Assembly: GCA_042218325.1 (NCBI GenBank)
Contig: JBDGRE010000010.1
Location: forward strand, 10,524-74,523
Source: Candidatus Nanohaloarchaea archaeon
GTDB lineage: Archaea > Nanohalarchaeota > Nanosalinia > Nanosalinales > Nanosalinaceae
DNA: 64,000 nt
Reading direction: 5' to 3'
A program made the position numbers and the translations under genes. The notes beneath the pieces were generated by a model, which was given only the letters and a program-made list of their open reading frames with translations, was not told the DNA's origin and searched no databases. This document shows positions 46,869 through 51,615 of this stretch, piece by piece. How positions within the stretch are numbered: the first letter of the stretch is position 1; each line of letters opens with the position of its first letter.

Positions 46869-48161
46869 TCAGTTCCCGTAGAGAGACCTCTCGCTGATCT
46901 CCACGTTCACGTTTTTCCGGAACAGTTCCTCCGCATCCTCACCCGAGGCCTGGCCGAGCGCCCACATCATCTTGACGTACGCCAGCTCCGGGTGCATATC
47001 CCGGGCGCCGATTACTCCCTCGTTTTTTACCCGGAGCTGGTTGGCGTATACGTTCATGTCCACGCGGCCGTTGACACACTGGGAGGTCATGACTGTCAGA
47101 GCGTCGTCGGCTATCTCTGATACTCTTTCCAGCATATCCTGGTGGTGTTCTGTATGCTCGTCCTGCGGTCGCGATGGCATGTGGCCGAGCCCTGTCCCCT
47201 CTATAATCAGGCCGCTGGGTTCGTGGTCGAGCACGGTTTCGAACTCCTCGACCTTCATCCCTGGCCGAGTCTTCAAGTAGGCGACATCGGTATCCAGCTC
47301 CGGCCTGAACTCGTACTCGTCGTTTCTTTCCTCGAAGTCCGTTTCGATTTCACCAGTCTGGTAGTTGACCTTTCCCAGAGGTTTCGAGTTAATCGGCTGG
47401 AACGCGTCTCTCCGCGAAGTGTGCATCTTCCGTGCCTTTGCCGAATTCAGTATGTGGCATTCGTCGTCGCTGGAGGACCCGTGCATGCAGATGCCGACTC
47501 CCTTAAAATCGGTCTCTGCCAGGAACTTGCCAGCGCAGTACAGGTTCATGGTCGCATCCGTTGAAGGCCTATCGCTCGACCGCTGTGCCCCTACCAGCAG
47601 CACACCTGTATCGATTCCTTTCAGCATGAGCCTCAACGCAGCCCCTGTATACGCCATCGTGTCGGTTCCATGGCCGATGATGATGCCATCGTAATCATCT
47701 TTTACCTCGTCTATCTTCCTGGCGATATCCTGCCAGTGTCCTGGCTCCATGTCCTCAGACATTATCTGGGCTGCGACCTCTGAATGCAGGTTGACTTCCT
47801 CGTCGAGTTCAGGATACATCTGGACAAGGTCTTCCGGCTCGTAGGACGCTTTCACACCGCCTTCCTCGTAGGATACCCGGGAGGCGATCGTTCCGCCGGT
47901 GTGCAGCACCAGGATATCCGGCCTGTCTTCTTCATGCTCTATATCCGGCTTCTCCCTCTCGCTGCTTTCCTGTTTCTCCACCAGCTCAGGCTCGCCCCTG
48001 ACGCCGATGTTGTAGCCGCTTTCAAGCTTTATCACGAAGGTCTCCGGGTCGCCGCTCTCGGGCTTCGGCATCAGCCTTCCCTCGTGGCCGTCGACACTGA
48101 CACGGTCGCCGACCTCTATACCTTCCTCCTCGAGCTGCTGCTGTATTTCTCCAGAATACAT
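46869..48161 (-). CDS. gatD: Glu-tRNA(Gln) amidotransferase subunit D
   Basis: KLESGYNIG, TGGTIASR, HGTDT, GAQRSSDRPS, KMHTSRRDAF, GTGLGH. Confidence 0.97.
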   Translation of the reverse strand: MYSGEIQQQLEEEGIEVGDRVSVDGHEGRLMPKPESGDPETFVIKLESGYNIGVRGEPELVEKQESSEREKPDIEHEEDRPDILVLHTGGTIASRVSYEEGGVKASYEPEDLVQMYPELDEEVNLHSEVAAQIMSEDMEPGHWQDIARKIDEVKDDYDGIIIGHGTDTMAYTGAALRLMLKGIDTGVLLVGAQRSSDRPSTDATMNLYCAGKFLAETDFKGVGICMHGSSSDDECHILNSAKARKMHTSRRDAFQPINSKPLGKVNYQTGEIETDFEERNDEYEFRPELDTDVAYLKTRPGMKVEEFETVLDHEPSGLIIEGTGLGHMPSRPQDEHTEHHQDMLERVSEIADDALTVMTSQCVNGRVDMNVYANQLRVKNEGVIGARDMHPELAYVKMMWALGQASGEDAEELFRKNVNVEISERSLYGN

Positions 48162-48327
48162 ACAGTTTCCCGCGGTTTCAAACCTTAATAAACTATAGAG
48201 AACCGGTAGTATGTAATACATGAAAGGTCTGAAAGGTGTTATAGCGCACTCTTGTATTACATTGCTGGGACTGTCCCGGGAGCCGAGTTTAAAAGAATGA
48301 CAGGGAATCTTGGATTTATCACTTAAC

Positions 48328-48402
48328 GGCGGGGTGGTGTAGCTCGGACTATCATCGTGCCTTTGGGAGGCATGGACCCCGGTTCAAATCCGGGCCCTGC
48401 CA
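48328..48402 (+). tRNA. tRNA-Pro: tRNA-Pro (TGG), no encoded CCA, no intron
   Basis: Acceptor GGCGGGG/CCCTGCC+A; anticodon arm GTGCC-TTTGGGA-GGCAT; T arm CCCGG-TTCAAAT-CCGGG. Confidence 0.93.
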
Positions 48403-49264
48403 ATTGCAAATCTCCACAATTCTAAGGGATGACGAAACTGCCAGAAACTTTTGAAGTGGTTGAAAAGTTTCCAGTCAAAATTCGAATTGATTGTCTCTTT
48501 TTGCTCTCCAGTACTCCATCCTTGCATCTAAATTTGAATAATTTTCATCAGTTATCTCAGCTTCCTCAAAACTATCCAAAGCGTGAGCACTTATTCCGCC
48601 CTCAGTATTTGAATCTTCAACAAAAATTAGCTTGCCTCTGTATCCTGGTAATCTCCGTAGATATTTCTGATTAGAGTTCCTATCTGCTTCTGATGGATTG
48701 GGATTGCCAGCCGGATGGTTATGACCGAGATACCAGTCCCCCTCAATTTCGGTGGCCATGTCAGCTAAAGCATCTATTTTATGCCCAGGATGGTCTACAG
48801 ACATTGAATCTCCAACATTTATTCTAAATATATCGGAGATACAGACCTCTCTTTCTTCCTGCCCCTCTAATCCATGACTCATATCTGAAAATCTATAATC
48901 TGAGAACTGATACTCTGAATCCGCCTTGACGAGAGCAAATAGATGCTCCACGCCCTCTTCAATAGCTTCATAAACCGGGCCAAGTTCTTCTTCAGGTAAT
49001 TTGATTACCGTATGTGTCTCTTCGGCTCTATGGTCTGCCTTCTTAGGAGAATTTTTACTACTAGAACCCTCATCAGTATCTGATAAAATGTCCTCTCTCT
49101 TAAATCGGCCTAAGTTATCGGAATTGATTTCAAGAAGTTTCTGGACTTCCTTTCTCATATGTTGTTATTGTTTAGTGGTATTTTAATGGCTTTTGGCCGA
49201 GTTTGGGTTCCGGAAACTTCCAATTGCATATGCCCGAATATCGGTTCAAATCCGGGCCCTGCCA
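48380..49264. mobile_element. Small integrase-free element in the tRNA-Pro 3' end, flanked by 23-bp direct repeats
   Basis: CGGTTCAAATCCGGGCCCTGCCA is identical at 48380-48402 and 49242-49264; the interior is visibly AT-rich and holds one gene. Confidence 0.75.
48475..49158 (-). CDS. JAB/MPN+ (RadC-like) domain protein
   Basis: EHLFAL...GHNHPAGNPNPSEAD is a complete JAMM motif (HxH-x7-S-x2-D). Confidence 0.8.
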   Translation of the reverse strand: MRKEVQKLLEINSDNLGRFKREDILSDTDEGSSSKNSPKKADHRAEETHTVIKLPEEELGPVYEAIEEGVEHLFALVKADSEYQFSDYRFSDMSHGLEGQEEREVCISDIFRINVGDSMSVDHPGHKIDALADMATEIEGDWYLGHNHPAGNPNPSEADRNSNQKYLRRLPGYRGKLIFVEDSNTEGGISAHALDSFEEAEITDENYSNLDARMEYWRAKRDNQFEF

Positions 49265-49437
49265 TCACTTCGTGATGCCGAAGCCCGAGAAAACTTGTTT
49301 TCGATGTTCAGATCCGGGCCTGCCAATCGCCTGATATGGCGCAGTGCGGCGCGCCTGACCAGCTCCGCTGGTCGACGGGTGGAACCGGTCATAGTGATGA
49401 AACTTCTAGAAGTTTCGTTCAAATTCGGGCCCTGCCA
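49242..49437 (+). repeat. Three copies of the tRNA-Pro 3' end (att-like repeats)
   Basis: 49242-49264 exact; 49306-49325 with 1 substitution and 1 deletion; 49417-49437 with 1 substitution. Confidence 0.88.
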
Positions 49438-49444
49438 CCGTTTT

Positions 49445-50089
49445 TCAGTCCTTTCCGATGTTAAGGTCGTGTCTCCTTGTATCGTATGCTATCTTCGATG
49501 CTGTCATGCCTCTCCCTTTCTGGTTCATGAAATACGGCTTCCCGGGTCCGCCGTAGACAACTTTCAACCGGTTCTTCGATATGTTTCCTGCCCGCAGCAT
49601 GAGCTTCACTGTGTTTTCGAAGGTGCCGGGATCAGGGTCGTCTCCTACCGCTATGACTGCGTTCAGTCTTGAAGGCCTGTAATCGGCGTCGAGTTCCTTT
49701 ATCATGGTGGAGACAAGCCCTGATTCTGTGGGCATGACGTGCGCCAGTCCTGCCACAGCTTTCTGGCCGGATTCCTCGAACAGGAGTACTCCGAGACAGG
49801 ACGAGAGACTCTCTGTATAGACGGCGTACCGTTCTTGATGTGAGTCCGTTATGACGTATCTTGGTTTGTCACTAACGTCGGTAGAGCAGACCTTCGTGTC
49901 TCCTTCACTGAATCTAGTAGACCAGTTGTTGACGGTCCTGCAATCTGACAGAGTTACTGGGAGTTTTCCCCCGCTTCCGAGTATATCCTTGATCAGAGAG
50001 AACACTGCTATCCGCTTCCTGTCGCCTTTTTGGCGACCTGGAATAAAAAATCTCTTGGATGTATCGGGCTCTGTTGACCTCCTCCACAA
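49445..50089 (-). CDS. CheD-like deamidase domain protein (start uncertain)
   Basis: TESLSSCLGVLLF...AGLAHVMP matches the CheD LGSC...GLAH Cys/His motif. Confidence 0.65.
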   Translation of the reverse strand: MWRRSTEPDTSKRFFIPGRQKGDRKRIAVFSLIKDILGSGGKLPVTLSDCRTVNNWSTRFSEGDTKVCSTDVSDKPRYVITDSHQERYAVYTESLSSCLGVLLFEESGQKAVAGLAHVMPTESGLVSTMIKELDADYRPSRLNAVIAVGDDPDPGTFENTVKLMLRAGNISKNRLKVVYGGPGKPYFMNQKGRGMTASKIAYDTRRHDLNIGKD

Positions 50090-50135
50090 TCCTGTTTATA
50101 TGTTGTAACTGACAGATAGTAAAATATGGTTCGAT

Positions 50136-50819
50136 ATGACGGATGACCTGAGGAAGCTCCCGTCCGCGGAAGAAGAAGAGCAGGTAGAGGTCACCGTGAG
50201 TTCGCATTTCGGCTACGGCCCGTTCGATGATGAAGAAGGCAGGTGCGAAATCCGGGCCCGGGGCGACAAAGAGCTGTATCTCTCGATGCCGACCGCAGGT
50301 GAGGACGAGTTCGTGACCGGTGGTGTCGAGTGCTACGAGTCCCTGGTAAAGATGACGGCCCCGGACTTCGAGGAAAGACACTGGGAGCCCGGCAGGGAGG
50401 GCTGCGAGAATCTCTCACAGGTCCCTTCGCCGGGTTACAGCGAGATGGAAGAGCTCAAGCAGGATTACATGGAACGCCTTGAAGCCGCCTCGACCGACCG
50501 GGCGGAGAGGAGTGTGCTTGCGGAGATGTGGTACGAGGCCGGAGAGATGGAGCTTGACGGTCCTGCACCACGGACCGCCGGTGATCAGAGGTCGAAGACG
50601 TCGAGTCCGGTTCTCTCGTCAAGCTCGTGCTCCAGCGGTGTCTCGCCGAGGAAGATTATGATTTCGAAGGTTCCCGAGACCTTTGCCGAGGAGCAGTGGC
50701 CGCCGATGCTGCTGAAGTCCCGTTTGCCGAGCTGGATGTGCGCGTGGACCTTGTCCGGGCTGATGTTGCCTGAGAACGAGGTGACCTCGAACTGCTGCTC
50801 GAACTCTTTCTCTCTGTAG
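50136..50819 (+). CDS. Hypothetical acidic protein (3' end doubtful)
   Basis: The first ~145 aa look like real coding sequence; the last 235 bp overlap the antisense DUF296 gene. Confidence 0.5.
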   Translation: MTDDLRKLPSAEEEEQVEVTVSSHFGYGPFDDEEGRCEIRARGDKELYLSMPTAGEDEFVTGGVECYESLVKMTAPDFEERHWEPGREGCENLSQVPSPGYSEMEELKQDYMERLEAASTDRAERSVLAEMWYEAGEMELDGPAPRTAGDQRSKTSSPVLSSSSCSSGVSPRKIMISKVPETFAEEQWPPMLLKSRLPSWMCAWTLSGLMLPENEVTSNCCSNSFSL

Positions 50820-51017: not shown

Positions 51018-51557
51018 TTATCTGAGCAGGATGTCGGGGAATATCCGTTCAACGTCCTCTCTTATCAGGTTGTAAACCGCTCCTAGGGCGAAGGCCGCTG
51101 GTCCCAGGTACACGAGGGGAGGCTCGGCGTACAGGAGGTGGAGTAGGACAAGAGAGGCAAGCATCCCGAGGTCTCTGGCGCCGCCATCTATTTTGACGAG
51201 ATATCTGCCGTCGATCCACTTCTGGGTCAGGTGGTTGAAGACGGCACCTTTCTCACTGTCTTCTCTGCCTTCTCCCGTATATACGTCAACGTCGTTTCCG
51301 AGTATATCCATCAGGCAGTGAGCGGATGCGGCTAGGAAGAAAGCCTTGGCGACCGCGTTTCCTGCCAGGAATGAGAAGGCTGTCAGCACCGGGTAAATAA
51401 CTGGGTAGTGTAGGTCTCTCCGGTGTCTTCTCTTCATGTCCAGGTCGGGAAACAGGCTTCCGGTTATCAGCGCGGTCAGAACAGGTATCCCTGCCCCGGC
51501 GACAGGAAACCATTCGTAAAGCAGGAGAGAAACCATCAGGTGGGTGAAGACCATCAT
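51018..51557 (-). CDS. Membrane-bound metal-dependent hydrolase (YdjM-like)
   Basis: MMVFTH, GSLFPDLD, HRRDLH, HCLMD. Confidence 0.8.
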   Translation of the reverse strand: MMVFTHLMVSLLLYEWFPVAGAGIPVLTALITGSLFPDLDMKRRHRRDLHYPVIYPVLTAFSFLAGNAVAKAFFLAASAHCLMDILGNDVDVYTGEGREDSEKGAVFNHLTQKWIDGRYLVKIDGGARDLGMLASLVLLHLLYAEPPLVYLGPAAFALGAVYNLIREDVERIFPDILLR

Positions 51558-51615
51558 CGGCTGGGTCAAGATTCCGGGCCAGATTTAATATTTCCTGCTG
51601 CGAAGCTTTCCTACT

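Follow-up and report, generated by a model that had tools for sequence, protein, structure and literature searches.

The 64,000-nt stretch of DNA analysed here, referred to as the window, derives from a Candidatus Nanohaloarchaea archaeon (contig JBDGRE010000010.1 of assembly GCA_042218325.1, positions 10,524 to 74,523 of the forward strand) and carries, adjoining the GatD/GatE genes, a tRNA-Pro(UGG) gene whose 3' end is followed by an array of repeated tRNA tails. This gene, called as tRNA-Pro(tgg), is the sole tRNA found by ARAGORN in the 64-kb window, and its last 23 nt constitute the reference core of the array. The features of the locus, in window coordinates, are the following.

48328-48402, plus strand: tRNA-Pro(UGG) gene, the anchor of the array (ARAGORN; Rfam tRNA, 47.8 bits)
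48380-48402, plus strand: reference core, the last 23 nt of tRNA-Pro, from the T-stem/T-loop to the discriminator
48403-48442, plus strand: Parm, a 40-nt left-end repeat with consensus ATTGCATATCTCCACATTTCATAGGGATGCGGAAACTGCC, abutting the tRNA end
48444-48471, no strand assigned: palindrome GAAACTTTT-N10-AAAAGTTTC (inverted repeat I9)
48475-49158, minus strand: cassette gene of 227 aa, G+C 0.40 (open reading frame (ORF) and translation)
49178-49187, minus strand: TATA-like box ATTAAAATAC (minus-strand reading), 20-29 nt upstream of the cassette ATG
49209-49241, plus strand: composite right end of the cassette, made of a degenerate core TCCGGAAACTTCCA, a truncated Parm start ATTGCATAT, and GCCCGAATAT (repeat family D3)
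49209-49231, plus strand: fifth, degenerate core copy within this right end, TCCGGAAACTTCCA then ATTGCATAT (repeat family D3)
49242-49264, plus strand: core copy 2, identical to the tRNA end at 23/23 positions
49265-49305, plus strand: type A module, decayed and cargo-less, which keeps TCAC-TTCG-TGA and GAAAAC-TT-GTTTTC (49289-49302) and has lost the inverted T-loop segment
49306-49325, plus strand: core copy 3, one base shorter and with an A>G substitution (by eye)
49326-49416, plus strand: type B module of 91 nt, recognised from DNA homologues, ending in the perfect palindrome GAAACTTCTAGAAGTTTC (49399-49416)
49417-49437, plus strand: core copy 4, with 1 mismatch in the last 21 nt
49445-50089, minus strand: accessory gene of 214 aa, just past core copy 4

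The starts of the four core copies are spaced by 862, 62, and 111 nt, which leaves gaps of 839, 41, and 91 bp, and a repeat search bore out the three extra tRNA-Pro tails and the gaps that a preliminary description of the locus had reported, as well as its statement that the tRNA-proximal copy is exact (23/23) and that copies 3 and 4 are degenerate. Specifically, copy 3 appears in this search as 49304-49326 with 70% ungapped identity and copy 4 as 49415-49437 with 87%. When up to 3 mismatches to a 21-nt core are tolerated, 3 occurrences are found in the window, against 0.00 expected from 100 dinucleotide shuffles. The four motifs described earlier in the intervals were all found again in their places, and the GAAACTT heptamer occurs 11 times on the two strands of the 64-kb window (6.4 expected); 6 of these 11 copies fall within the 973 bp from 48444 to 49416, a clustering well beyond chance also when the A+T-richness of the stretch is allowed for.

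The first interval is a foreign single-gene cassette. Its G+C content is 0.39-0.44 (about 40%), against 0.52-0.61 in the flanks and 57% in the genome, and it has the configuration by which genomic islands are recognised, i.e., a stretch of 40% G+C, 839 bp long, enclosed between a tRNA gene and a 23/23-nt displaced copy of its end. The protein encoded by its only gene contains a complete JAMM/MPN+ motif, HNHPAGNPNPSEAD, corresponding to HxHx7Sx2D, and matches the RadC family of Pfam with an E-value of 6e-4 and 20.1 bits, under the cut-off of 22.1, and that of NCBIfam with a score of 18 against a cut-off of 180. A single relative, 74% identical and named RPN8/RPN11-like at its source, was found among 5.8 billion proteins. 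The cassette is predicted to encode a protein of the JAMM/MPN type (RadC/JAB-like). The TATA-like box upstream of the gene has a similar counterpart, AATTTTAATG, at the corresponding place of a cassette on contig C26 of the same genome, and may represent the cassette's own promoter, from which a leaderless mRNA would be transcribed. At the left end, the first arm of the palindrome at 48444-48471 is common to two copies on contig C5 of the same genome (GAGAAACTTTTCAAGTGG), and the second arm is not; at the right end, the composite arrangement, followed by the core, recurs on C26 and in another genome of the order, G067 (locus L086, near 5950). The GGATTT-CGGTTC-AAATCC arrangement seen at cassette right ends was considered as a recombinase core with inverted arms and was dropped; it may be a decayed variable-loop/T-stem segment (GGACCC to GGATTT).

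The genome to which the window belongs (a 1,072,872-bp assembly in 35 contigs, 96% complete) has 10 Parm sites, each immediately preceded by a tRNA-tail-like ...CTGCCA and adjacent to a patch of low G+C, and a sequence model of the repeat (R1) detects it in 24 of the 70 genomes of the order, or 22 of the 49 of the window's own family. Parm lies directly 3' of a genuine tRNA-Pro(tgg) in G050, G065, G051, and G056 and of tRNA-Pro(cgg) in G055. Moreover, it forms arrays with a spacing of 640-1600 bp in G051, G067 (two arrays), G064, G050, and G011 and on the window genome's own C26, and the stretches between successive copies mostly hold one ORF, in mixed orientation, with those opposite in strand to the repeat being the more frequent. 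Among 20 ORFs of the relatives' arrays, 14 have no Pfam family, and the other 6 comprise HEPN, nucleotidyltransferase, CYTH, NUDIX, and hexapeptide transferase proteins and one weak match. No consensus RNA fold was obtained from the 10 own copies of Parm; in a wider set of copies, inspected by eye only, a small stem seems to covary between CCACAT..ATGTGG and GGATTT..AAATCC.

Three cassettes are common to different genera. One, between G067 (L086, 5270-5967) and G050 (L089, 4805-5516), is 76% identical over 714 nt, the neighbours to the left and right being unrelated; the second, between G067 (L088) and the window genome's contig C5, which also carries the TFIIB gene, shows identities of 87.5% and 78.7% and lies exactly between two Parm copies in G067; the third, 81% identical over 535 nt, is the second unit of the array of G001 and the first after tRNA-Pro in G068. 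In all three cases, the DNA homology ends at the repeats, and the GatD gene beside the tRNA is just 66-74% identical among the genomes that share cassettes. The comparison of the locus across genomes that had been proposed earlier shows a variable content: in the complete genome of the same genus, the sister species G001, a cassette of similar size lies behind GatD and tRNA-Pro and encodes a HEPN protein and a minimal nucleotidyltransferase, a pair of the toxin-antitoxin type (G001 C1, ~158.8-159.6 kb; L028, 1865-2576). Since a different tRNA-proximal cassette occupies the same tRNA, the content varies between species and the newest unit adjoins the tRNA. Beyond the HEPN cassette of G001 lies a partial copy of the tRNA, a longer one, which is followed in turn by a hairpin, a core, and Parm.

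A conserved unit of ~85 nt occurs at C5:62670-62752 and C16:56353-56430 of the window genome and near 1750-1840 of L028 in G001; it consists of a T-loop-like GGTTCAAATCC, a hairpin GAAAATCC-N4-GGATTTTC, GTGATGCAGAAAC..., and a variant tail with TTCGAAT, followed by Parm, and its GTGATGMAGAAAC resembles the GTGATGAAAC ahead of the palindrome in the window (49392-49401). Small membrane proteins similar to YdjM are encoded beside Parm on C5 (L049, 6317-6730) and C16 (L051, 5806-6252), and the window contains a weak YdjM-like ORF (E 0.009; 51018-51569, minus strand) 1.6 kb past the last tRNA-end copy, which may be old cassette cargo. The 214-aa accessory gene past core copy 4 has no Pfam or NCBIfam match, and a homologue is present in one of the 69 other genomes of the order (G069), near no tRNA or repeat; the gene is possibly older island material.

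The intervals of 41 and 91 bp, which the preliminary description regarded as very small cassettes, have to be reclassified: they are decayed copies of conserved, cargo-less hairpin modules that occur at many tRNAs, often with no island behind. Intact homologues of the type A module lie between tRNA-tail copies in several genomes and at several different tRNAs. In one contig of a ~95% related strain, extra letters at 49285-49289 restore the inverted T-loop segment (...CCCGCGATTTGA...), and an extra letter at 49318 restores the missing C of core copy 3; as the related strain keeps an intact form of the 41-bp unit, the window copy is a deletion product. Homologues of the type B module lie between tRNA-end copies on three contigs of G024, and further matches are present in G005, G004, and G010.

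When the genomes of the order were searched with a pattern of two T-loop motifs separated by 40-70 nt, and with the reversed pattern as a control, modules in which a second tRNA tail follows after 50-80 nt were detected in 37 of 70 genomes, and none with the control. In two families of the order, the modules are built on one fixed plan: first the tRNA tail, frequently a small hairpin next, then an inverted T-loop segment GGATTTGA, a GAA...TTC hairpin, and finally the tail again. In the loci examined, there are 42 distinct instances, in 27 of which the second tail is identical (21/21) to that of the local tRNA. Thirty-eight modules are distributed over 31 different tRNA ends; 30 of these 38 contain GGATTTGA, which is complementary to the T-loop, and some hairpin classes are common to different tRNA ends (GATTTTC in 10, GTTTTC in 9, and GAGCTTC in 5). 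Both GAAAAC-TT-GTTTTC and GAAACTTCTAGAAGTTTC of the window belong to the GAA...TTC type. A hairpin that uses the last bases of the tRNA in a perfect stem of at least 4 bp forms in 14 of the 38 modules, against 8.1 on average and 14 at most when the tails were shuffled 500 times, so that this hairpin is real, though not universal. The segment ahead of GGATTTGA matches the local T-stem at 1.9 of 3 positions, against 1.54 with shuffled partners (reached in 16 of 5000 shuffles), and complementarity of the modules to the local acceptor strand gives no signal (self 3.42, non-self 3.44; reached in 1187 of 2000 shuffles).

About 9 of the 43 tRNA genes of the window genome, i.e., about a fifth, have a nearby second tail, and at tRNA-Met and tRNA-Glu(ctc) the module is directly followed by host DNA of normal G+C, with no island. 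An identical tRNA-Met gene is followed by an insert in 4 of 6 genomes, of at least three kinds: the window genome and G012 share one module, and G005 and G004 carry longer modules, each of another kind. Behind the same gene, the insert of G009 comprises several hairpins and no clear second tail in the 150 nt read, and the sister species G001 has no module within 130 nt. With permissive thresholds, Rfam finds just the tRNA and a snoRNA match at E 0.17 in 48200-49600, and 10 tRNAs with two weak, chance-level matches over 12 loci with intact modules. The folding energy of 36 modules is not biased to one strand (tRNA strand lower in 15, opposite strand in 20; Wilcoxon p 0.40; G-U pairs 48 vs 39). 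Long introns, of 48-143 nt, are predicted in many tRNA genes of the window genome (Ser, Lys, Ile, Leu, Arg, Ala, Gly, and Pro-cgg), and ARAGORN run without intron search reports just 20 tRNAs. Together with GatD/GatE next to the tRNA and the TFIIB gene of C5, these introns characterise the genome as archaeal.

The absence of an integrase from the window is confirmed: all 7 matches to the tyrosine recombinase family PF00589 in the genome lie on other contigs, and none on that of the window. One of them connects a recombinase with Parm. On the 4.4-kb contig C26 (42% G+C), a tRNA-like T-arm is followed by a gene for a 405-aa tyrosine recombinase that ends right at a degenerate core and Parm, and two further cassettes lie past this junction. 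The enzyme looks Xer-like, with 40.7 bits against the cut-off of 265 for the integron integrase family TIGR02249 and 92 against 220 for archaeal XerA; its nearest matches among deposited viruses are integrases of archaeal pleomorphic viruses (34% identity over 82%), and it is 97% identical to an enzyme of G006, which belongs to another genus, with DNA homology ending at its stop codon. C26 is one of the short contigs with 42-47% G+C in this 57% G+C genome (C3, C20, C21, C26, C27, and C33), which may be mobile DNA or contamination of the bin by a low-G+C relative; C3 has the same tRNA-Arg pair as a contig of G006.

Two further tRNA genes of the genome are associated with integrases. Behind tRNA-Glu(ttc), a 2.3-kb low-G+C island (C23:15160-17587; L097, 2161-4587) starts with the N-terminal fragment of an integrase that is 50% identical to the C26 enzyme and has one TAG inside, and it ends with a copy of the tRNA 3' end of which the last 21 nt are identical in a pattern scan (~50 nt by eye, back to the anticodon arm); it is a classical decayed insertion of a longer-core type. 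Beside the intron-bearing tRNA-Arg(gcg) lies a ~25-kb region of 38-50% G+C (C30:1-25122), probably an integrated element or virus of full size; a hairpin CCCCATT...AATGGGG stands right after the tRNA end, and a gene for a 434-aa integrase is located immediately downstream of the tRNA.

Taken together, the data slightly favour serial site-specific insertion into the T-loop by trans-acting tyrosine recombinases, with the newest unit beside the tRNA. This reading builds on the repeats themselves, on the foreign composition and the conservation of the ends, on the arrays of relatives, on the homology limited by the boundaries, and on the different cassette of the sister species and the distal decay. 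Small integrative elements of these archaea would use the segment of tRNA-Pro(UGG) from the T-loop to the 3' end as their attachment site, and each insertion would duplicate the last 21-23 nt of the tRNA and restore the tRNA gene; a duplication of this extent, from the T-loop to the 3' end, is typical of T-loop-targeting integrases. The crossover would fall at the T-stem/T-loop boundary, where the identity begins (CGGTTC...). New inserts would push the older ones away from the tRNA, and the distal units would decay. At the locus of the window, the most recent insert would be the 839-bp cassette, with Parm as its left end, the JAMM/MPN-type gene read towards the tRNA, and the composite right end, and the two decayed, cargo-less hairpin modules would be what lies beyond it. 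The units would thus have been reduced to single genes or bare ends that rely on a recombinase supplied in trans: as the cassette has no recombinase, its movement would need a tyrosine recombinase encoded elsewhere, which we infer to be the agent, and the cassettes may still be mobile. Of the capture model originally advanced for the locus, this retains the polarised pile of insertions bounded by tRNA copies, the lack of an integrase in cis, and, for the 839-bp interval, the small cassette, one of a family that mostly holds single genes; it gives up the 41- and 91-bp intervals as cassettes and the integron, and the palindromes stay putative recombinase binding sites. The alternative then offered, scars of large deleted islands, fits poorly with the constant layout and the small size of the units in many genomes.

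Several points weigh against this reading. Units of 60-130 bp are too small to enter as double-stranded circles, so that an extra step, either deletion in place or another mechanism, is needed for the modules. Parm could be a native flank copied by the elements rather than the end of an element, because it follows tRNA-Pro in so many genera. C26, on which alone an integrase is linked with Parm, may come from a different organism within the bin; no recombinase was found near the arrays of G050, G051, G064, and G001, and PF00589 has no match in G064 (77% complete) and only sub-threshold ones in G050 and G051. In addition, excision products and empty sites were searched for in the assembled Logan contigs of metagenome runs, those that contain the stretch of the window being salt-lake metagenomes, and neither an excised circle nor a clean empty site appeared in these contigs. 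On their short side, the joints from 48402/3 to 49241/2 (runs X3 and X4) span just 23-25 nt, which is the length of the repeat. A ~95% related strain is represented in run X4 by contigs over 48076-48402 and 49242-50248; 48510-49146 is covered by no contig of at least 90% identity, a missing cover that proves nothing. A backward joint from 49231 to 48379 with CTCTTAACT in between (runs X1-X3) was considered as a circle junction and set aside, as it resembles the composite right end of other genomes and is taken to be another locus.

A bolder version of the serial-insertion reading, possible but doubtful, is that the system is integron-like yet independently built: single-gene cassettes with a site of ~60 nt (the tRNA-Pro tail and Parm) would be captured, stacked, reshuffled, and passed singly between genera by a tyrosine recombinase acting in trans, and the modules would be the minimal units of the same machinery, possibly processed as folded single strands. 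A further reading, which we regard as unlikely, separates the modules from the cassettes: the modules, and perhaps Parm, would be small hairpin elements of their own, spread by a process other than integrase att recombination that copies the local tRNA tail as a long target duplication with a partial inverted copy, and the cassettes would merely share the hotspot. This agrees with their occurrence in 37 of 70 genomes and its absence from the reversed control, with hairpin classes and GGATTTGA (30 of 38) shared despite 31 different tRNA ends, with second tails that match the local tRNA in 27 of 42 instances (21/21), with the match of the segment ahead of GGATTTGA to the local T-stem above that of shuffles, with the varied inserts behind the identical tRNA-Met (4 of 6 genomes, at least three kinds), and with the modules at tRNA-Met and tRNA-Glu(ctc) that have no island and are too small for circle integration. 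However, the genome offers no candidate enzyme: although it is 96% complete, it has no match to the Y1 transposase family PF01797, which as a control is present in 6 of 14 known genomes, nor to Cas1 (PF01867), and on these grounds both REP/MITE hairpin repeats moved by a Y1 (HUH) transposase and integration of the casposon/Cas1 type were discarded. The duplicated block of 21-23 nt, from the T-loop to the 3' end, is moreover typical of T-loop-targeting integrases, complementarity to the local acceptor strand gives no signal (self 3.42, non-self 3.44), and Parm looks like the left portion of a module, with a small palindrome formed with the tRNA end and then a CCGGATTT-like segment, which links modules and cassettes.

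It is improbable that modules and Parm are kept for a function, either as tRNA trailer structures (for processing, termination, or alternative pairing of either tail with the 5' half of the tRNA) or as decoy attachment sites by which the tRNA gene is spared. Their frequency (about 9 of 43 own tRNA genes), their constant layout in two families, the capacity of the inverted T-loop to pair with either tail, and the ATG of a putative gene on contig C31 that lies 17 nt after the second tail would accord with such a role; against it, folding shows no strand bias (15 vs 20 of 36, p 0.40; G-U pairs 48 vs 39), neither an Rfam family nor a consensus fold of Parm emerges, presence differs within a genus and kind between genera at the same tRNA, and the copies of the window itself are decaying. 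Non-canonical archaeal tRNA introns occur in the T-arm, where the duplicated segment begins, and many tRNAs of this genome carry long introns, so that the modules might be T-loop introns with a duplicated last exon, the tRNA being made spliced or unspliced. This is very improbable and has been largely refuted, as a strict bulge-helix-bulge motif that restores the tRNA fits just 1 of 30 modules, and identical flanking repeats would require a self-complementary central 4-bp helix, which the T-loop segment does not provide. A true integron, with an IntI-type integrase, promoterless cassettes, and attC hairpins, has next to no chance of being the answer. The attC site has the layout R''-L''...L'-R' and a conserved core GTTRRRY, and the succession of inverted T-loop, GAA...TTC hairpin, and T-loop recalls this layout, as the arrays of single-gene units recall those of integrons; but the integrase linked to an array, that of C26, scores 40.7 bits against the TIGR02249 cut-off of 265, the core GTTCAAA (inverse TTTGAAC) has a C, not a purine, as its fourth base in what is a comparison of consensus sequences, the orientation of the cassettes is mixed, the cassette of the window appears to come with a promoter of its own, and a tRNA, rather than an attI beside intI, anchors the array. 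The locus is not an integron.

Integrons have reportedly been found in Archaea as well. The system described here resembles them in its arrays of mostly single-gene cassettes, in short repeats with hairpin potential, and in cassettes common to different taxa, and differs in the lack of IntI, attI, and a common promoter, in boundaries derived from a tRNA, in the mixed orientation, and in the tRNA anchor. Serial insertion at a tRNA has its closest counterpart in the tycheposons of Prochlorococcus (Hackl et al.; 10.1101/2020.12.28.424599), which, as far as the available part of that account goes, insert tRNA-proximally with tRNA-Pro(tgg) among their targets; in their islands partial tRNA copies alone separate the elements, newer elements push older ones distally, degenerate remnants and extra partial tRNAs accumulate, and the accessory cargo is small. 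The same tandem order at the tRNA-proximal end with partial tRNAs in between is seen here. In contrast, tycheposons are bacterial, measure several kb, and carry their own integrase and replication genes, whereas the units of the present group are single-gene cassettes of 0.6-1.6 kb or gene-free units of 40-110 nt, mostly with no recombinase nearby, and have a 40-nt end repeat and hairpin ends that the accessible text does not describe for tycheposons; the cassette of the window, with one JAMM-type gene and neither recombinase nor replication module, falls outside that class. The SNJ2-type integrase system of a haloarchaeal pleolipovirus (PMC5861418, available in part) likewise inserts into a tRNA gene and has core direct repeats, and the C26 integrase is nearest to integrases of pleomorphic viruses (34%); there, however, a whole provirus with a 14-bp core and two accessory proteins is integrated, and here the units are far smaller and mostly free of integrases. 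In the available portion of PMC9897764, tRNA fragments are treated as the products of integrations of 9-23 kb, and the sections at hand of a preprint on nanohaloarchaeal viruses (10.1101/2025.02.15.638363) make no mention of cassettes or modules. Searches of the literature on nanohaloarchaeal integrases and tRNAs, archaeal integrons, and archaeal arrays of partial tRNAs yielded no account of such cassettes or modules.

The partial tRNA copies are easily miscalled in annotation, and the hairpin modules behind about a fifth of the tRNA genes of this genome are a separate puzzle. Ultra-small symbiotic archaea, with genomes of ~1 Mb, are thought to have few routes of gene exchange, and the tRNA-Pro locus points to one such route, whose cargo comprises a JAMM protease-like protein here, a HEPN/nucleotidyltransferase pair in the sister species, and CYTH, NUDIX, and many uncharacterised genes elsewhere. 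If the cassettes move singly, they would represent a second, independent invention of an integron-like platform for gene capture, with a defined recombination site.

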